From: Escherichia coli
Lineage (GTDB): Bacteria > Pseudomonadota > Gammaproteobacteria > Enterobacterales > Enterobacteriaceae
Direction: 5' to 3' (one strand)
Assembly: GCF_003334305.1 (NCBI RefSeq)
Contig: NZ_QOWS01000025.1
DNA length: 64,000 nt
Below, in pieces: positions 7,799-39,012 of the stretch. The notes beneath the pieces are model-generated. The model was not told where the DNA came from and searched no databases. It saw only the letters and a program-made list of their open reading frames with translations. Every line of letters starts with the position of its first letter. Position 1 is the first letter of the stretch. A program made the translations under genes and the position numbers.

Positions 7799-8284
7799 TC
7801 AGATAGCTTTTGCCATCTTCAGATTACACGGGCTCATCTGCCAGTTGAATGTACCGTTTCCGCTTTCATCAAGCGTTACGCTGGCAATGGCCGAGGTGGT
7901 AAACATAGGCGGCGTTTCGCCCGGACATAACTCGGCAACCAGATACCCGACTAACGGTAAGTGAGAGATCACCAGTACCGAAGCAACACCTTCATTGGTC
8001 AACGCCTGCAAATAGGCACTGACCAGACCAACATCGCCGCAGGGCGTTAACTCCGGCAGAACTTCTGCACTGGAAGGCAGGTTCAGACAATCCCCCACTT
8101 CTTCCAGTGTTTGCTCGGCTCGCAGGAACGGGCTCACCAGAACGCGTTCGATTTCCACTTTTTGACCTTTCAGCCAGTTCGCCATCAGGCGAGATTCGTC
8201 ACAACCATTAGTGGTCAGAGGACGAACGGAATCACTGGCGGCATCGAGGGCTGCGTCGCCGTGACGCATGATAAAAACTTGCAT
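7799..8284 (-). CDS. sixA: phosphohistidine phosphatase SixA
   Basis: 161-aa ORF beginning MQVFIMRHGDA (histidine phosphatase RHG motif); conserved position downstream of fadJ. Confidence 0.95.
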   Translation of the reverse strand: MQVFIMRHGDAALDAASDSVRPLTTNGCDESRLMANWLKGQKVEIERVLVSPFLRAEQTLEEVGDCLNLPSSAEVLPELTPCGDVGLVSAYLQALTNEGVASVLVISHLPLVGYLVAELCPGETPPMFTTSAIASVTLDESGNGTFNWQMSPCNLKMAKAI

Positions 8285-25097: not shown

Positions 25098-26636
25098 TCA
25101 CCCAACGCCTTTCGCTGTAAACGGCGGTTTCGCAAACCAAACCAAAACCGTAAGTAAGATAAAAGCAATAGCCGCCATACGGAAAATCTCATTTGCAGAA
25201 ATAGAAAGTGACTGCTGGGTTATTTCATTATTAATTTCATTAAGAACTCCTGAAAGCGAACCATAGTATTTATCCATAATTTGTGACGATGAATTAAACA
25301 CGGGGTTAAATTGATCGATGGTTGCTGTCAACTGACTATGGTGTAACGATTCGCGTCGTCCCCACAGCGTCATTGTCAACGACGTACCAACTGATCCTGA
25401 CAAGGTACGAAAAAAATTACTCATACTCGAGGCATTGGCAAATTTATTATCTGGCAAGCCTGAAAACGAAATCGTTGTTAAGGGTAAAAAGAAACAGGCA
25501 ACGGCGAATCCCTGGAAAAACTGTGGCAAAATGATGCCTGTAAAATCAATCGTTGGCATAAATGTCACAGAACGCCAGTAATAGCAAACCGCATACATCA
25601 AAAAACTGAATGTCACTAACACCCGCATGTCTATTTTATTGCCATAACGTCCTATCAAAGGTGAAATCAATAGTGGCATGATGCCGATGGGCGCATAAGC
25701 AAGCCCGGCCCATATCGCATTATACCCCATCGTTTCCTGGAGTAACTGCGGCATAAGGACGATCGCTCCAGAGTAAAATAAATACGCGCAGGTGATACTC
25801 ACAATACCAATGGTGAAATTACGAGACTTAAACAAACTGAGATCAAGAATCGGATTCTCTGAGGTCGACTCCCAAATGACTAAAGAGATCAGAGAAATAA
25901 CTGATACTACTGTTAATATTATTATTGTACTCGAGTTGAACCAATCCAGATCGCGCCCTTTATCAAGCATAATTTGCAAGCCACCAACACCGAGCACTAA
26001 CAGGGTCAGTCCTGGTAGATTCATTTTTACCGGTGAAGTTTCAGTTTCTCTTCCTTTAAGTAAGGTTAAGCATAATGTCAGGACGATAATCCCCATAGGG
26101 ACATTGATTAAAAATATCCAACCCCAGCTAAAGTTATCGCAAATATAACCGCCCAATATCGGCCCACATATCGGAGCGATAATCACGGTCATTGACCATA
26201 ATGCCAGAGCAAATGTTCTTTTTTCTGGTGGATAATTCCTCAATAATAAACTCTGTGACAGTGGAATTAACGGCCCCGCCATTAATCCCTGAACGACTCT
26301 AAAAAATATCAGCACATCAAGATTGGTCGATAAACTACACATTAAGGAAGACAGCGAAAAAAAAGTGACTGAAAGTAAAAATAACCTTAATTCGCCTATT
26401 CTTTGTGCCAGCCTGCCGGTAACAGGGATCGCAATGGCATTTGCTACGCCAAACGAGGTGATAACCCAGGTGCCTTCGTCTGTTGATGCTCCCAGAAAGC
26501 CAGATATTGTCGGTATTGCGACGTTAGAAATAGTGGAATCCAACATTTGCATAAATGTCGCTAATGACAATGCAATAGTGACGCACCATAACGTCCCACC
26601 GGTTAATGGTGCCGGAGTTGATTTAGTGATTGCCAT
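25098..26636 (-). CDS. emrY: MFS multidrug efflux pump EmrY (EmrB paralogue, 14-TM)
   Basis: 512-aa polytopic MFS ORF; start overlaps emrK stop; downstream of EvgA-regulated emrK. Confidence 0.95.
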   Translation of the reverse strand: MAITKSTPAPLTGGTLWCVTIALSLATFMQMLDSTISNVAIPTISGFLGASTDEGTWVITSFGVANAIAIPVTGRLAQRIGELRLFLLSVTFFSLSSLMCSLSTNLDVLIFFRVVQGLMAGPLIPLSQSLLLRNYPPEKRTFALALWSMTVIIAPICGPILGGYICDNFSWGWIFLINVPMGIIVLTLCLTLLKGRETETSPVKMNLPGLTLLVLGVGGLQIMLDKGRDLDWFNSSTIIILTVVSVISLISLVIWESTSENPILDLSLFKSRNFTIGIVSITCAYLFYSGAIVLMPQLLQETMGYNAIWAGLAYAPIGIMPLLISPLIGRYGNKIDMRVLVTFSFLMYAVCYYWRSVTFMPTIDFTGIILPQFFQGFAVACFFLPLTTISFSGLPDNKFANASSMSNFFRTLSGSVGTSLTMTLWGRRESLHHSQLTATIDQFNPVFNSSSQIMDKYYGSLSGVLNEINNEITQQSLSISANEIFRMAAIAFILLTVLVWFAKPPFTAKGVG

Positions 26637-27799
26637 TAAAGTTGTCCATTATGCGAAATAATGTTGCTAATTTCTTTTTCTATCGGACTGGTATCGATAA
26701 CTAAAGCCTTACTGGTATAAGCCGGCATGGAGGTCACGGTTGAAGCCAGCTCAGGCATCTCGGCAATGTCTTCGTTCTTCGTATCAATAGTTGCTGTCAT
26801 CGATAAACCAATACGCAAGGGATGTTCCATGAGTTCTTTTGGATCAAGAGAAACTTCAACCGGTACACGCTGAACGATTTTGATCCAGTTCCCTGTCGCA
26901 TTTTGTGCAGGTAATAAGGAGAACGCATTGCCGGTTCCCATATTGATCCCTGTCACCCGACCATGAAACACAACATTTTCACCATAAAGATCGCTGATAA
27001 TATTGACCGATTGACCAATCCGTACATCCGTAAGTTGTGTTTCTTTAAAGTTGGCATTAACCCACATTTGACGTGCCGGTACGACAGCCATTAACGATTG
27101 TCCGGGGCTCACTGTTTCGCCGACCTGAACACTTCTCTGGGCAATATAGCCGGTAACCGGACTCTTAATATCCGTACGTTTAAGCGCCAACCAGGCTTCT
27201 TTAGTTGCATCCGCCGCTTCAACGACTTGTGGCTGACGGTTTAATGGTGTGTTCATTATTAAAGCTTTATTCGCTTTATAAGCCTGGATAGCGGCATTCA
27301 ATGCCGCTTTGCTACTTATTAACGTATCTTTGGTATGCTCCAGCGTTTCTTTTGAAATAACCCCCTGCTTCGCTAACGGCACTCGACGGTTATAATCTTC
27401 TAAAGATTGTTGATACTGAATACGTGCTGAAGCGACTTCGGCACTGTATTGTTTATCCTGTAAGTATAGTTTATTCGTTTGCCGAACAATATTTGCCAGA
27501 TTATTTTTAGCTTTATTGAGTGCGATAGTGGCATCAGTTTTATCCAGTGAAACTAAAATGTCACCTTGTCGAACGTAGTTCGTATCTTTATGATTAACGA
27601 CAGTGACACTACCTGAGACTTGTGCAGAAATTGGATCTGCATTCCCCGTGACATAGGCGTCATCTGTACTAATCATGTCTTCTAATTCCATTGACCAATA
27701 GGCATAGGCACCTGAAAACGCAATAAATAAAACTACCGCCAATAAAGAAAAGTATTTTCTTCTGTTAGAATGTTTTTTATTTGAATTAATCTGTTCCAC
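26636..27799 (-). CDS. emrK: multidrug efflux membrane-fusion protein EmrK (EmrA paralogue)
   Basis: 387-aa ORF with N-terminal membrane anchor and coiled-coil/HlyD-like body; GTG start; divergent from evgA. Confidence 0.93.
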   Translation of the reverse strand: MEQINSNKKHSNRRKYFSLLAVVLFIAFSGAYAYWSMELEDMISTDDAYVTGNADPISAQVSGSVTVVNHKDTNYVRQGDILVSLDKTDATIALNKAKNNLANIVRQTNKLYLQDKQYSAEVASARIQYQQSLEDYNRRVPLAKQGVISKETLEHTKDTLISSKAALNAAIQAYKANKALIMNTPLNRQPQVVEAADATKEAWLALKRTDIKSPVTGYIAQRSVQVGETVSPGQSLMAVVPARQMWVNANFKETQLTDVRIGQSVNIISDLYGENVVFHGRVTGINMGTGNAFSLLPAQNATGNWIKIVQRVPVEVSLDPKELMEHPLRIGLSMTATIDTKNEDIAEMPELASTVTSMPAYTSKALVIDTSPIEKEISNIISHNGQL

Positions 27800-27972
27800 T
27801 ATTATCTCTCATTTCTCATAGATGAAATTTATGAATTGAATGAAAAGAGCATTCATTCTTCATATCAAACACAGTGCATGTGTTGCACATTATCCCAGGA
27901 ACGTTGGAGGCCTAATTTAAATGAGGTGCAAAAAAAACAACAGAGGACTAAACCGTGGCTTTTGCAATACAA

Positions 27973-27990
27973 TTCTTACGCCTGTAGGAT
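27973..27990. promoter_or_regulatory. EvgA-box-like inverted repeat in the emrK/evgA divergent region
   Basis: TTCTTACGCCTGTAGGAT against consensus TTCYTACA-NN-TGTARGAA (7/8 and 7/8). Confidence 0.5.
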
Positions 27991-28214
27991 TAGTAAGAAG
28001 ACTTATAGTGCCAACTTGAAACTATAAATCATCGGTACAATCCCTGATTTTATTGTTGACATTTCATTTATGCCGACTATTTATATGGTATACTTGTCGA
28101 ATTATCTTAAAGGAAGCTCAGATTTTCTTATTTTTATTGAGAAAATGAGATGACGCCTTATGTCTGTATTACTACAGGGAGAAGGGAGATGCTTCATTGC
28201 AAAGGGAATAATCT

Positions 28215-28829
28215 ATGAACGCAATAATTATTGATGACCATCCTCTTGCTATCGCAGCAATTCGTAATTTATTGATCAAAAACGATATTGAAATCTTAGC
28301 GGAGTTGACTGAAGGGGGAAGCGCCGTTCAGCGGGTGGAAACACTTAAGCCTGATATCGTCATCATTGATGTCGATATCCCCGGAGTTAACGGTATCCAG
28401 GTGTTAGAAACGCTGAGGAAGCGCCAATATAGCGGAATTATTATTATTGTCTCCGCTAAAAATGACCATTTTTACGGGAAACATTGTGCTGATGCTGGCG
28501 CTAATGGATTCGTGAGTAAAAAAGAAGGCATGAACAATATCATTGCGGCTATTGAAGCTGCAAAAAATGGCTACTGCTATTTCCCCTTCTCTCTCAACCG
28601 GTTTGTTGGAAGTTTAACGTCCGACCAGCAAAAACTCGACTCCTTATCGAAACAAGAAATTAGTGTCATGCGGTATATTCTTGATGGCAAGGATAATAAT
28701 GACATTGCTGAAAAAATGTTCATCAGCAACAAAACTGTCAGCACTTATAAAAGTCGCCTGATGGAAAAATTAGAATGTAAATCACTGATGGATCTTTACA
28801 CATTCGCGCAACGTAACAAAATCGGCTAA
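28215..28829 (+). CDS. evgA: response regulator EvgA (NarL/FixJ family)
   Basis: 204-aa ORF with receiver domain (MNAIIIDDHPLA, DIVIIDVDIPGVNG) and LuxR-type HTH C-terminus. Confidence 0.96.
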   Translation: MNAIIIDDHPLAIAAIRNLLIKNDIEILAELTEGGSAVQRVETLKPDIVIIDVDIPGVNGIQVLETLRKRQYSGIIIIVSAKNDHFYGKHCADAGANGFVSKKEGMNNIIAAIEAAKNGYCYFPFSLNRFVGSLTSDQQKLDSLSKQEISVMRYILDGKDNNDIAEKMFISNKTVSTYKSRLMEKLECKSLMDLYTFAQRNKIG

Positions 28830-28833
28830 TCAC

Positions 28834-31800
28834 ATGAAGTTTTTACCCTATTTTTTTCTTCTCTGTTGTGGTCTTTGGTCGACCATAAGTTTCGCAGACG
28901 AAGATTACATCGAATATCGTGGCATCAGTAGTAACAACCGTGTCACACTTGATCCAGTACGTCTGAGCAACAAGGAATTACGTTGGTTAGCGAGCAAAAA
29001 AAATCTTGTGATTGCAGTACACAAGTCCCAAACGGCTACCTTGTTGCATATCGATTCGCAGCAACAGGTTCGTGGTATTAATGCTGATTATTTAAATCTT
29101 TTAAAAAGAGCGTTAAATATCAAATTAACACTCCGGGAATACGCAGATCATCAAAAAGCAATGGACGCGCTGGAAGAAGGTGAAGTCGATATAGTGTTAT
29201 CACATTTAGTTACTTCGCCGCCTCTTAATAATGACATTGCTGCAACCAAACCATTGATAATTACCTTTCCGGCGCTGGTAACCACCCTTCACGACTCAAT
29301 GCGACCGCTTACCTCACCAAAACCAGTAAATATTGCTCGGGTAGCAAATTACCCCCCAGACGAGGTAATTCATCAATCATTTCCAAAAGCAACAATTATC
29401 TCTTTTACAAATTTATATCAGGCATTAGCATCCGTCTCAGCTGGGCACAATGATTACTTTATTGGTAGTAACATCATTACCAGCAGTATGATTTCCCGCT
29501 ATTTCACTCACTCCTTAAATGTAGTGAAATATTATAACTCGCCGCGTCAATATAATTTTTTCTTGACCAGAAAAGAATCTGTCATTCTTAATGAAGTACT
29601 CAATAGATTTGTTGATGCTTTAACAAATGAAGTTCGCTATGAAGTATCACAAAATTGGCTTGATACAGGAAACCTGGCCTTTCTGAACAAACCATTAGAA
29701 CTCACTGAACATGAAAAACAGTGGATTAAGCAGCATCCCAATTTAAAGGTGCTGGAAAATCCTTACTCGCCCCCCTATTCTATGACGGATGAAAATGGCT
29801 CGGTTCGGGGCGTTATGGGGGACATTCTTAATATTATTACCTTGCAAACAGGTTTAAATTTTTCTCCGATCACCGTTTCACACAATATCCATGCTGGAAC
29901 ACAGCTTAGCCCCGGAGGATGGGATATAATACCTGGCGCTATTTATAGTGAAGATCGAGAAAATAATGTTTTATTTGCTGAAGCCTTCATAACAACGCCT
30001 TACGTTTTTGTCATGCAAAAAGCGCCTGACAGTGAACAAACATTAAAAAAAGGAATGAAAGTTGCCATTCCATATTATTATGAGCTGCATTCGCAATTAA
30101 AAGAGATGTATCCGGAGGTTGAATGGATACAGGTCGATAATGCCAGCGCTGCATTTCACAAGGTTAAGGAAGGTGAACTTGATGCTCTGGTCGCGACACA
30201 GTTAAATTCGCGTTACATGATCGATCATTACTATCCTAATGAACTTTATCATTTTCTTATTCCTGGCGTTCCGAATGCATCGCTTTCGTTCGCTTTTCCT
30301 CGCGGAGAACCGGAACTTAAGGATATTATTAATAAAGCACTGAATGCAATTCCCCCAAGCGAAGTTCTGCGCCTGACGGAAAAATGGATTAAAATGCCCA
30401 ATGTGACCATTGACACATGGGATCTATATAGCGAGCAATTTTATATTGTTACGACATTATCCGTTTTATTAGTTGGCAGTAGCCTTTTATGGGGATTCTA
30501 CCTGTTACGCTCAGTTCGTCGTCGTAAAGTCATTCAGGGTGATTTAGAAAACCAAATATCATTCCGAAAAGCACTCTCGGATTCCTTACCGAATCCAACT
30601 TATGTTGTAAACTGGCAAGGTAATGTCATTAGTCATAATAGTGCTTTTGAACATTATTTCACTGCGGATTACTACAAAAATGCAATGTTACCATTAGAAA
30701 ACAGTGACTCACCCTTTAAAGATGTTTTTTCTAATGCGCATGAAGTCACAGCAGAAACGAAAGAAAATCGAACAATATACACACAGGTATTTGAAATTGA
30801 TAATGGCATCGAGAAAAGATGCATTAATCACTGGCATACATTATGCAATCTTCCTGCAAGTGACAATGCAGTATATATTTGTGGTTGGCAAGATATTACT
30901 GAAACGCGTGATCTAATTAATGCACTCGAGGTAGAAAAAAATAAAGCGATAAAGGCTACCGTAGCAAAAAGTCAGTTTCTGGCAACGATGAGTCACGAAA
31001 TAAGAACACCAATAAGCTCTATTATGGGCTTCCTGGAACTTCTGTCGGGTTCTGGTCTTAGCAAGGAGCAACGGGTGGAGGCGATTTCACTTGCCTACGC
31101 CACCGGACAATCACTCCTCGGCTTAATTGGTGAAATCCTTGATGTCGACAAAATTGAATCGGGTAACTATCAACTTCAACCACAATGGGTCGATATCCCT
31201 ACTTTAGTCCAGAACACTTGTCACTCTTTCGGTGCGATTGCTGCAAGCAAATCCATCGCATTAAGTTGCAGCAGTACATTTCCTGATCATTACCTGGTTA
31301 AGATCGATCCTCAGGCGTTTAAGCAGGTCTTATCAAATTTACTGAGCAATGCTCTCAAATTTACCACCGAGGGGGCAGTAAAAATTACGACCTCCCTGGT
31401 TCACATTGATGACAACCACGCTGTTATCAAAATGACGATTATGGATTCTGGAAGTGGATTATCGCAGGAAGAACAACAACAACTCTTTAAACGCTACAGC
31501 CAAACAAGTGCAGGTCGCCAGCAAACAGGATCTGGCTTAGGCTTAATGATCTGCAAAGAATTAATTAAAAATATGCAGGGCGATTTGTCATTAGAAAGTC
31601 ATCCAGGCATAGGAACAACATTTACGATCACAATCCCGGTAGAAATTAGCCAGCAAGTGGCGACTGTCGAGGCAAAAGCAGAACACCCCATCACACTACC
31701 TGAAAAGTTGAGCATATTAATCGCGGATGATCATCCGACCAACAGGCTATTACTCAAACGCCAGCTAAATCTATTAGGATATGATGTTGATGAAGCCACT

Positions 31801-32427
31801 GATGGTGTGCAAGCGCTACACAAAGTCAGTATGCAACATTATGATCTGCTTATTACTGACGTTAATATGCCGAATATGGATGGTTTTGAGTTGACTCGCA
31901 AACTCCGTGAGCAAAATTCTTCCTTACCCATCTGGGGGCTTACAGCCAACGCACAGGCTAACGAACGTGAAAAAGGGTTAAGTTGCGGCATGAACTTATG
32001 TTTGTTCAAACCGTTGACCCTGGATGTACTGAAAACACATTTAAGTCAGTTACACCAGGTTGCGCATATTGCACCTCAGTATCGCCACCTTGATATCGAA
32101 GCCCTGAAAAATAATACGGCGAACGATCTACAACTGATGCAGGAGATTCTCATGACTTTCCAGCATGAAACGCATAAAGATCTACCCGCTGCGTTTCAAG
32201 CACTAGAAGCTGGCGATAACAGAACTTTCCATCAGTGTATTCATCGCATCCACGGTGCGGCTAACATCCTGAATTTGCAAAAGTTGATTAATATTAGCCA
32301 TCAGTTAGAAATAACACCTGTTTCAGATGACAGTAAGCCTGAAATTCTTCAGTTGCTGAACTCTGTAAAAGAACACATTGCAGAGCTGGACCAGGAGATT
32401 GCTGTTTTCTGTCAGAAAAATGACTAA
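28834..32427 (+). CDS. evgS: hybrid sensor histidine kinase EvgS (periplasmic domains, HisKA/HATPase, receiver, HPt)
   Basis: 1197-aa ORF with signal peptide, H-box (MSHEIRTPISSIMGF), receiver (ILIADDHPTNRLL) and C-terminal HPt region. Confidence 0.96.
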   Translation: MKFLPYFFLLCCGLWSTISFADEDYIEYRGISSNNRVTLDPVRLSNKELRWLASKKNLVIAVHKSQTATLLHIDSQQQVRGINADYLNLLKRALNIKLTLREYADHQKAMDALEEGEVDIVLSHLVTSPPLNNDIAATKPLIITFPALVTTLHDSMRPLTSPKPVNIARVANYPPDEVIHQSFPKATIISFTNLYQALASVSAGHNDYFIGSNIITSSMISRYFTHSLNVVKYYNSPRQYNFFLTRKESVILNEVLNRFVDALTNEVRYEVSQNWLDTGNLAFLNKPLELTEHEKQWIKQHPNLKVLENPYSPPYSMTDENGSVRGVMGDILNIITLQTGLNFSPITVSHNIHAGTQLSPGGWDIIPGAIYSEDRENNVLFAEAFITTPYVFVMQKAPDSEQTLKKGMKVAIPYYYELHSQLKEMYPEVEWIQVDNASAAFHKVKEGELDALVATQLNSRYMIDHYYPNELYHFLIPGVPNASLSFAFPRGEPELKDIINKALNAIPPSEVLRLTEKWIKMPNVTIDTWDLYSEQFYIVTTLSVLLVGSSLLWGFYLLRSVRRRKVIQGDLENQISFRKALSDSLPNPTYVVNWQGNVISHNSAFEHYFTADYYKNAMLPLENSDSPFKDVFSNAHEVTAETKENRTIYTQVFEIDNGIEKRCINHWHTLCNLPASDNAVYICGWQDITETRDLINALEVEKNKAIKATVAKSQFLATMSHEIRTPISSIMGFLELLSGSGLSKEQRVEAISLAYATGQSLLGLIGEILDVDKIESGNYQLQPQWVDIPTLVQNTCHSFGAIAASKSIALSCSSTFPDHYLVKIDPQAFKQVLSNLLSNALKFTTEGAVKITTSLVHIDDNHAVIKMTIMDSGSGLSQEEQQQLFKRYSQTSAGRQQTGSGLGLMICKELIKNMQGDLSLESHPGIGTTFTITIPVEISQQVATVEAKAEHPITLPEKLSILIADDHPTNRLLLKRQLNLLGYDVDEATDGVQALHKVSMQHYDLLITDVNMPNMDGFELTRKLREQNSSLPIWGLTANAQANEREKGLSCGMNLCLFKPLTLDVLKTHLSQLHQVAHIAPQYRHLDIEALKNNTANDLQLMQEILMTFQHETHKDLPAAFQALEAGDNRTFHQCIHRIHGAANILNLQKLINISHQLEITPVSDDSKPEILQLLNSVKEHIAELDQEIAVFCQKND

Positions 32428-36463: not shown

Positions 36464-37714
36464 TCAGATGGCGTGGTTTTGCTTCATTGCAGCAATTTCA
36501 TCGTCGCTATAACCCAGCTCCTGCAATACAGCAGCGGTATGTTCACCTAATAGCGGCGCAGCTTTAATATCCGGCGTAAAGGCAGAGAATTTCATTGGAC
36601 AACCAACGGTCAGATATTTTCCACGCAACGGTTGTTCCACTTCAACAACACTGCCACTTTGGCGCAAAGAGGGATCAAGTGAAATTTCTTTCATACTTAA
36701 AACCGGTGCACAAGGAATATCAAACTGAGTCAAATAGGCCACCGCTTCATGTTTATCAATAGTGACAGTGTATTTTTCGATTTCAGCAAAAATATCGAAA
36801 ATATGTGGCTGTCGTGCATGGGCTGTACTGTATGCCGGATCGGTAATCCATTCTGGTTTGCCGATGGCTTTACAGGTGTTTTCCCAGTTTTGCTCCTGAA
36901 TAGTGAAATAAATATAGGCGTTAGGATCGGTTTCCCAGCCTTTACATTTCAGGATCCAGCCAGGCTGACCGCCACCACCTGCATTACCACCGCGGGGAAC
37001 TGCATCACCAAATGTACCATTCGGATACTGCGGGTATTCTTCCAGATAACCCAATTTATCGAGACGCTGCTGGTCACGTAATTTCACGCGGCAAAGGTTC
37101 AATACGGCATCCTGCATTGACATGGTGACTCGTTGCCCACGCCCCGTTTTTTCGCGATGCAGCAAAGCAGCAAGTAAACCGATCAGCAAATGCATTCCGG
37201 TGTTGCTGTCACCCAACGCTGCAGCGCTTACCAGCGGCGGACCATCCCAAAAACCCGTAGTGGATGCCGCGCCACCCGCTGCCTGAGCAACGTTTTCATA
37301 GGCTTTTACATTCACATAAGGCGAACACTCATCAAACCCTTTGATCGAACCAAAAATCAGACGTGGATTGATTTCTTGAATATGCTCCCAGGTGAAGCCC
37401 ATGTGATCAATGGCCCCTGGATGAAAGTTCTCGACTAAGATATCAGCTTCGCGGATCAGCTTTTCCATTACCTCTTTGCCTTCCGCTGTTTTGGTATTTA
37501 ACTCAATAGAACGTTTGTTACTGTTAAGCATGGTGAAGTAAAGCGCATCGATATCAGGAATATCTCGCAGCTGGTGACGCGTTACGTCACCAACGCCGGG
37601 ACGTTCAATTTTAATAACGTCAGCGCCAAACCAGGCCAGCATTTGAGTACAAGATGGGCCAGATTGCACACCGGTGAAATCGAGAACTTTAATTCCTTGA
37701 AGTGGAGTTGACAT
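36464..37714 (-). CDS. frc: formyl-CoA:oxalate CoA-transferase Frc (YfdW)
   Basis: 416-aa family III CoA-transferase ([43 protein letters not shown]). Confidence 0.95.
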
Positions 37715-37965: not shown

Positions 37966-37983
37966 TTCTTACAACTGTAAGAA
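37966..37983. promoter_or_regulatory. perfect EvgA consensus box upstream of frc
   Basis: TTCTTACAACTGTAAGAA matches both half-sites exactly; about 250 bp upstream of frc start; coordinates cross-checked against an overlapping ORF-track frame. Confidence 0.55.
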
Positions 37984-38226: not shown

Positions 38227-38859
38227 TTAGTTCACAAACAGTGCTTCGCTGTCGACGATGATTCCATCTTCCGCACCTTTAAGCGCCAGGTTTGCCTCGT
38301 AGTATTGCTTTTTATCAAGCAGTTTCTGCGCATCAGCAAGTGCATTACGAGTCTGTTTAAGCGGCATCAGATATTGGTTTTCCATTACGCCAACACCGGC
38401 CAGGCGAAGTTCTTCCATTGCGCCCTTTTTATCCCCTTTCGCCATTTTTTCATTGGCAATTTTTATCGCGGCTTCTTTTTCGGGAGTTGCTACATAGCTC
38501 TCAGAAATTCCGACAGATGCATTAATGACAATATATTGGTCATCATTGAGATTGGTCTTTTTACCTGGCTTAGCGAACTTTGCCCATTCGGTACTGTCAT
38601 CTGACAGCAAAGCGGAAGCTTCATTGGTCAGTTCTTTTGCCTTTTCTGGATCGCCATGAAACAGAGCCAGGCGCGCTACCTGCACGTCACGCATCGCATA
38701 TAAACCTTGTTCAGAGATACGCTCTGCTGCTGCCGTTTTCTGGGTTTGCTGAACTTGCTGAGTTTGCTGTTGTGCCGCTACCGGTGCATTATCAGCAGCC
38801 CATACAGTTGAAGATGCCAGAATTGCTGTGACCATCGTGGCCATAATTAAACGTTTCAT
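38227..38859 (-). CDS. yfdX: periplasmic protein YfdX (EvgA-induced)
   Basis: 210-aa ORF with signal peptide, Q-rich linker and YfdX-family body; EvgA boxes upstream. Confidence 0.9.
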
Positions 38860-38956
38860 ACTTACCTCATTCTTTAACAGTTTTAGAAAACGCCGCCATC
38901 ATATTGGGTGAGCATGAAATGAGAAATCAGAGAGCAACGGTCATTTTGAAAGGGTT

Positions 38957-39012
38957 ATCTTACAGTTGTAGTTATTATCGCAAGAAGTATTTTAGTCTTA
39001 CAATTGTAGGAA
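38957..39012. promoter_or_regulatory. two EvgA-box-like sites upstream of yfdX
   Basis: ATCTTACAGTTGTAGTTA (weaker) and GTCTTACAATTGTAGGAA (15/16 half-site match), 100-150 bp upstream of yfdX start. Confidence 0.5.

Follow-up and report, generated by a model that had tools for sequence, protein, structure and literature searches.

Organization of the emrK-evgA locus

The window analysed here, a 64,000-nt stretch of Escherichia coli DNA, is chromosomal and contains the divergent control region of the emrKY and evgAS genes. Of 5426 complete E. coli genomes, 5395 contain the segment 27700–28320 at an identity of at least 90%, and emrK and evgA are annotated there. The genes and the regulatory site considered below are as follows.

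25098–26636, minus strand: emrY, MFS permease, second gene of the emrKY operon
26636–27799, minus strand: emrK, first gene of the target operon, encoding the periplasmic adaptor of the EmrKY-TolC pump
27973–27990, no strand assigned: EvgA box, imperfect inverted repeat of 18 bp with the sequence TTCTTACG-CC-TGTAGGAT
28189–28218, plus strand: evgL, 9-codon leader peptide overlapping the evgA start codon (MG1655 annotation, PMC11210196)
28215–28829, plus strand: evgA, NarL/FixJ-type response regulator, cognate to the box
28834–32427, plus strand: evgS, hybrid sensor kinase that phosphorylates EvgA
36464–37714, minus strand: frc, downstream gene in the window
38227–38862, minus strand: yfdX, downstream gene in the window

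According to the list of open reading frames and a K-12-like record, evgS is followed by yfdE, yfdV, oxc, frc, yfdX and ypdI. The EvgA protein of the window scores 437.9 bits against the NCBIfam EvgA equivalog model, for which the cut-off is 251. The evgAS genes and the box are also plasmid-borne, at 20 plasmid places in the E. coli collection, and plasmid pCFSAN061763 (91762–97795) carries an IS1 element in place of emrK, about 130 nt from the box. A 398-bp contig assigned to Rhizobium cauense (NZ_JAEUAT010000078.1) encodes the first 114 residues of EvgA with 100% identity to our query and is probably E. coli contamination.

The EvgA box

An 18-bp inverted repeat, TTCYTACA-N2-TGTARGAA, is reportedly the consensus for EvgA boxes defined by Masuda and Church in 2003. 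The plus-strand sequence TTCTTACGCCTGTAGGAT occupies exactly positions 27973–27990 and agrees with this consensus at 14 of the 16 specified positions, with one mismatch in each half: the left half-site (TTCTTACG) matches at 7 of 8 positions, with G instead of A at position 8, and the right half-site (TGTAGGAT) at 7 of 8, with T instead of A at position 18. When read towards emrK, the box is ATCCTACA-GG-CGTAAGAA. The initial annotation had described an EvgA-box-like site here with 7/8 matches in both halves, about 175 bp from emrK and about 225 bp from evgA. Its position and half-site matches were reproduced exactly, and the distances were measured as 173 nt to the emrK GTG (27799, minus strand) and 224 nt to the evgA ATG (28215). 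No second match with three or fewer mismatches was found in the 415-nt emrK/evgA intergenic region.

The statistical signal resides in the paired arrangement of the half-sites. Single half-sites occur in the window at chance level (79 found, 78 expected), so that only the 18-bp paired arrangement carries a signal: with up to two mismatches, the paired consensus is found three times in the 64-kb window against an expectation of 0.02, and none of 100 shuffled windows contained three such matches. We conclude that this inverted repeat very probably serves as the operator for EvgA in the control region shared by the divergent emrKY and evgAS genes. On the strength of the present sequence tests, this 18-mer is probably the footprinted EvgA site; the exact 18-mer and related boxes had no match in the full texts searched. 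Because regulation of this control region by EvgA is already documented, and the site is typical of EvgA boxes, the site is already known, and our finding is a re-identification of a documented operator.

Several other features lie on or near the box. A TTG-initiated open reading frame of 63 codons (27836–28027, plus strand) runs across it. A candidate third half-site, AGTAAGAA, directly follows the box at 27992–27999 in the present strain and in K-12. It was rejected as probably non-functional, because most E. coli have AGTGAGAA at these positions and single half-sites are at chance frequency. The emrK and safA upstream regions have in common an 8-mer, ACTATAAG in gene orientation, located exactly 11 nt upstream of the box (28002–28009 in the window; about 8101–8108 of the MG1655 region at safA), which is absent from ydeP and yegR. 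An Rfam scan of the emrK/evgA spacer matched no family.

Sister boxes in the window and in MG1655

All three window matches with at most two mismatches are located upstream of EvgA-activated operons, namely emrK, frc and yfdX. The frc box (37966–37983) is a perfect palindrome 251 nt upstream of the gene. The yfdX box (38995–39012) has one mismatch and lies 132 nt upstream, and a weaker box with three mismatches (38957–38974) is located 38 nt nearer to yfdX. Inverted repeats upstream of frc and yfdX have been described as bound by EvgA (PMC3720670). In MG1655, we identified further boxes upstream of safA (111 nt, one mismatch), ydeP (243 nt, two mismatches) and yegR (106 nt, one mismatch). A comparison of six boxes revealed nine invariant positions (C3, T5, A6, C7, G12, T13, A14, G16 and A17), all of which are present in the emrK box. 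All directly regulated EvgA genes are described as having an EvgA binding site (PMC4283999). No box with three or fewer mismatches was found upstream of gadE in the MG1655 region, and a two-mismatch match, TTCTTACGCATGAAAGAA, is located within the mdtE coding sequence (MG1655 3659886–3659903).

Conservation of the box

Relatives were collected by a scan with the EvgA protein, with one genome retained per species, and two of them were informative. The first (L002) is a divergent lineage labelled E. coli; its EvgA is 98% identical, and its box, TTCTTACACCTGTAGGAA, is perfect and identically positioned. None of the 5426 complete E. coli genomes contains the 34-mer around this box. The second is Yersinia vastinensis (L003, NZ_CACVAF010000001.1), whose EvgA is 94% identical and is preceded by an emrK homologue. 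Its box, TTCTTACACGTGTAGGCA, has one mismatch and the same position, even though the intergenic region is only 65% identical to that of the window. Comparison with Y. vastinensis also delineated a conserved flank.

27959–27972, minus strand: TTGTATTGCAAAAG, conserved segment flanking the box towards emrK

This flank and the left half of the box match Y. vastinensis at 17 of 18 positions, and the box with its 14-nt emrK-side flank forms the best-conserved block of the comparison, the evgA leader excepted. The box is thus present where EvgA is 98% and 94% identical; the EvgA homologues of Hafnia, Klebsiella, Enterobacter and Buttiauxella (66–71% identity) have no nearby box at three or fewer mismatches. 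In Y. vastinensis, the emrK-evgA-evgS arrangement is located on a 590-kb contig, and an EvgA identity of 94% next to an intergenic identity of only 65% suggests that the whole module, operator included, was acquired by horizontal transfer long ago.

Of 5418 E. coli records, 4892 contain an exact copy of the 34-mer at 27961–27994. Another 374 records have a C-to-A change at an unspecified spacer base of the box and 126 have a change in its left flank, leaving at most 27 records unaccounted for. Apart from the spacer-base polymorphism, the box is identical in about 99.5% of the E. coli records. In E. coli proper, the emrK box deviates from the consensus by two nearly fixed changes (A8 to G and A18 to T), whereas Y. 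vastinensis has A at both positions. The weaker consensus match compared to the perfect box of L002 counts against the operator reading. The two changes may tune emrKY to a weaker response.

A proposed shared layout of EvgA-dependent promoters

Six promoters (emrK, safA, ydeP, yegR, frc, and yfdX with its weak box) were aligned by the end of the box that is nearer to the promoter. Each of them has a −10-like hexamer that begins 53–54 nt past the box: TAAATT in emrK, TATATT in safA, TAATTT in ydeP, TATTAT in yegR, TATTCT in frc and TATGAT in yfdX. The summed hexamer score at this offset is 27.0, a value not reached in any of 5000 random-shift trials, and the next independent offset scores 5.3; with the four promoters that are not obvious paralogues, P = 0.0012. 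At yfdX, it is the weak three-mismatch box, and not the strong one, that is 54 nt from the −10-like TATGAT. The hexamer in emrK is kept as TAAATT in L002 and is improved, to TAGAAT, in Y. vastinensis. Constant spacing to the core promoter is a criterion derived in the present analysis and not a published one.

A second element recurs in the same register. The pentamer RTCYT is found at an identical offset, 25–29 nt past the box, in emrK, safA, ydeP and yegR. This is the best 5-nt window of 80 offsets, with P about 0.001 from random shifts. The equivalent position reads GTCTT in Y. vastinensis, ATCTT in L002, and CTCTGATT in frc and yfdX. RTCYT resembles the core of an EvgA half-site and lies 42 bp from the distal half-site. 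It could represent an auxiliary EvgA half-site or a −35-region element. The corresponding features of the emrK promoter are as follows.

27914–27919, minus strand: TAAATT, predicted emrK −10, at the hexamer offset common to six EvgA-box promoters
27944–27948, minus strand: GTCCT (RTCYT element), 25–29 nt past the box, predicted at about −41 to −37

From this layout we infer an emrK transcription start near 27907; the leader would then be about 108 nt long, and the centre of the box would fall near −74.5. The predicted emrK promoter shows no −35-like hexamer, which fits a strict dependence on the activator. EvgA-dependent promoters might thus follow a rigid arrangement consisting of the box, 24 nt, RTCYT(A), 23–24 nt and the −10, with the E. 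coli changes in the emrK box perhaps serving to tune the response; we put this generalization forward tentatively, as a possibility that may well prove wrong.

TAAATT is only moderate as a −10. A stronger extended −10, TGgGATAAT (27897–27889, minus strand), is found in the direction of emrK at about 80 nt from the box and may be a basal emrK promoter; it is kept in L002, and its TG is lost in the O157:H7 record examined. A published predicted promoter, TTGATA-17-TTTCAT, is located further downstream than TAAATT (PMC3946193). Two other placements of the −10, at offset 21 (which would put the box at −41.5) and at offset 29 (box at −49.5), were rejected, since cross-promoter support is much weaker than at 53–54. 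A generic sigma-70 scan of the spacer returned one weak minus-strand site, fewer than in shuffles. A weak terminator-like hairpin (27874–27888, minus strand) lies within the predicted emrK leader.

Activation of emrKY by EvgA

The initial annotation had considered the site consistent with EvgA-activated emrKY expression. This assignment is well supported by the consensus match, the sister boxes, the conservation, the adjacent evgA gene and the published regulation by EvgA. The box lies in non-coding DNA upstream of an operon with published EvgA dependence. Binding of EvgA to the emrK/evgA intergenic region with direct activation of emrKY is stated in PMC5573083, and Kato et al. (2000), as cited in PMC9496106, reported binding to the emrKY promoter region and direct regulation. 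Physical binding to the intergenic region is attributed to Tanabe (1998) and Kato (2000) in PMC5573083 and PMC9496106. Moreover, the emrK promoter serves as a direct EvgA reporter (PMC5706723), and deletion of evgA or of evgS abolishes emrK expression (PMC6393483).

A plausible sequence of events would start with mild acid and alkali metals, which would activate EvgS and lead to phosphorylation of EvgA. An EvgA dimer, through the helix-turn-helix domains characteristic of the NarL/FixJ family, would then occupy the two half-sites and, from about −74.5, activate an emrK promoter that lacks a recognizable −35. We infer two possible modes of contact with the polymerase. Bound EvgA may touch RNA polymerase directly in a class-I-type manner, or additional EvgA units may extend towards the −35 region, as in the paralogue BvgA, with GTCCT as the promoter-proximal contact.

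A different mode of action would be counter-silencing, whereby box-bound EvgA displaces or remodels H-NS on the AT-rich spacer without directly contacting RNA polymerase. This is a compatible variant of the operator reading and does not exclude it. The position of the box far upstream of both genes (predicted −74.5 for emrK, −119.5 for evgA) would suit such a role, and a genomic SELEX table marks H-NS for the emrK/evgA spacer (PMC3946193). However, the spacing between the box and the −10-like hexamer is rigid, at 53–54 nt across six promoters, which points to a stereospecific contact that counter-silencing would not need. We therefore consider counter-silencing unlikely, but still deserving of consideration, as the main way in which the operator works.

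Possible autoregulation of evgAS

The initial annotation had also raised possible autoregulation of evgAS. This suggestion is fair to the literature, as evgAS autoregulation was reported by Tanabe (1998), cited in PMC11210196 and PMC5573083. Later work did not find evgAS induction: none was observed by Eguchi (2003), as cited in PMC8174306, autoregulation was likewise not seen in PMC11210196, and the evgA transcript was not induced while emrK was EvgA/EvgS-dependent (PMC6393483). The evgA promoter can be located precisely in the window.

28086–28101, plus strand: evgA promoter P1, with an extended −10, TGgTATACT (28086–28094), and start at 28101

The published leader extends from −114 to the ATG, with the evgL ATG at +89 (PMC11210196). 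Both place +1 at 28101, and relative to this evgA start the box is centred at −119.5. On the evgA side of the box, there is neither a −10-like hexamer at offset 53–54 (CCTGAT/CTGATT) nor an RTCYT element. In addition, the half-site with the better consensus match at the outer positions faces emrK, as it does at safA and ydeP. The geometry thus favours emrK, rather than evgA, as the promoter served, and because of the −119.5 position and the missing common layout on the evgA side, any effect of the box on evgAS is weak or absent. The part of the suggestion that concerns autoregulation therefore agrees with the early report, and is opposed by the later expression studies and by the geometry.

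A stronger version of this idea would assign the box chiefly to positive autoregulation of evgAS, with emrKY activation secondary. Besides the report of Tanabe, it could draw on a 10-nt block, GAAACTATAA (28018–28027), which is invariant out to Yersinia and includes, on the evgA side and 33 nt from the box, a −10-like TATAAA. It could also draw on the absence from Y. vastinensis of the stretch of roughly 29 nt in which the evgA −10 and start of E. coli are found. The block may represent an alternative evgA promoter and, as such, bear on the autoregulation dispute; its TATAAA reads TATAAT in Y. vastinensis. Nevertheless, the lack of evgAS induction on EvgS activation, the −119.5 position, the missing hexamer and the orientation of the better half-site all stand against the box having autoregulation as its main role, and we judge this very unlikely. 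The operator reading, with emrKY as the principal target, is preferred.

Other readings of the site

The box could also belong to another regulator of the NarL/FixJ family. A NarL/NarP-type 7-2-7 arrangement, TACGCCT-GT-AGGATTA at 27977–27992, agrees with TACYYMT-N2-AKRRGTA at 12 of 14 positions, but matches of equal quality occur in the window at chance frequency (4 found, 3.18 expected). The EvgA consensus is a far better fit and recurs only upstream of EvgA-regulated operons. The 7-2-7 candidate was therefore rejected, and assignment of the box to such a regulator is highly improbable. Finally, a functionless chance resemblance, which the two mismatches and the commonness of individual half-sites might have suggested, is barely credible, given that about 1e-4 matches with up to two mismatches are expected in the 415-nt intergenic region alone, that the position is kept in divergent lineages and that the identified E. 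coli polymorphisms are confined to the spacer base or the flanks.

Significance and comparison with known systems

As the EvgA operator, the site ties the sensing of acid and alkali metals by EvgS/EvgA to expression of the EmrKY-TolC efflux pump, which plays a part in Shigella's survival in macrophages (PMC6393483). Beyond re-identification, the analysis offers modest refinements: a predicted emrK start, a box-promoter spacing common to six EvgA promoters, and an emrK-facing layout that could help settle the disagreement over evgAS autoregulation. The common spacing and the two nearly fixed non-consensus bases of the E. coli box are likewise to be regarded as small refinements suggested by sequence comparison.

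The closest relatives of the emrK box are the ydeP, safA-ydeO, yegR, frc (yfdW) and yfdX boxes, which have the same 18-bp layout and invariant core. The ydeP box is its equal in match quality, with two mismatches each. The emrK box differs from the other EvgA boxes in its location in a divergent spacer common to the regulator's own operon, and from that of the divergent Escherichia lineage L002 at positions 8 (G) and 18 (T), both of which are the consensus A in L002.

The 7-2-7 sites of NarL/NarP and the 20-bp lux box of LuxR are palindromic operators bound by dimers whose helix-turn-helix effector domain is of the same family as that of EvgA. The EvgA box resembles them in being a palindromic operator for a dimer of this common domain family. 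It is distinguished from NarL/NarP sites by the merely chance-level 7-2-7 match at emrK, and from the lux box by its predicted layout, the lux box being centred near −42.5 and overlapping the −35.

BvgA sites of Bordetella, such as those at fha, consist of inverted TTTCCTA heptads, with a primary site far upstream and further dimers extending to the −35 region. BvgA is a paralogous regulator, and its half-site core, TTCCTA, is similar to TTCYTA. As at emrK, the primary inverted repeat is located well upstream of a promoter without a −35, and the half-site-like RTCYTA element of emrK adjoins the predicted −35, 42 bp from the distal half-site. The systems differ in organism and regulon and in the centre of the primary site (−88.5 at fha, predicted −74.5 at emrK), and nothing in the present analysis shows more than one EvgA dimer bound at emrK. 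A BvgA-type multi-dimer arrangement would have secondary low-affinity sites every 21–22 bp or so from the primary site to the −35, and no recognizable intermediate site was found between the box and RTCYTA in the emrK promoter. A three-part layout of EvgA promoters was not described in the literature searched. If this layout is true, the primary dimer of EvgA would sit near −74, with an element resembling a half-site at the edge of the −35, which, by analogy, suggests that EvgA may extend towards RNA polymerase in a manner similar to BvgA.
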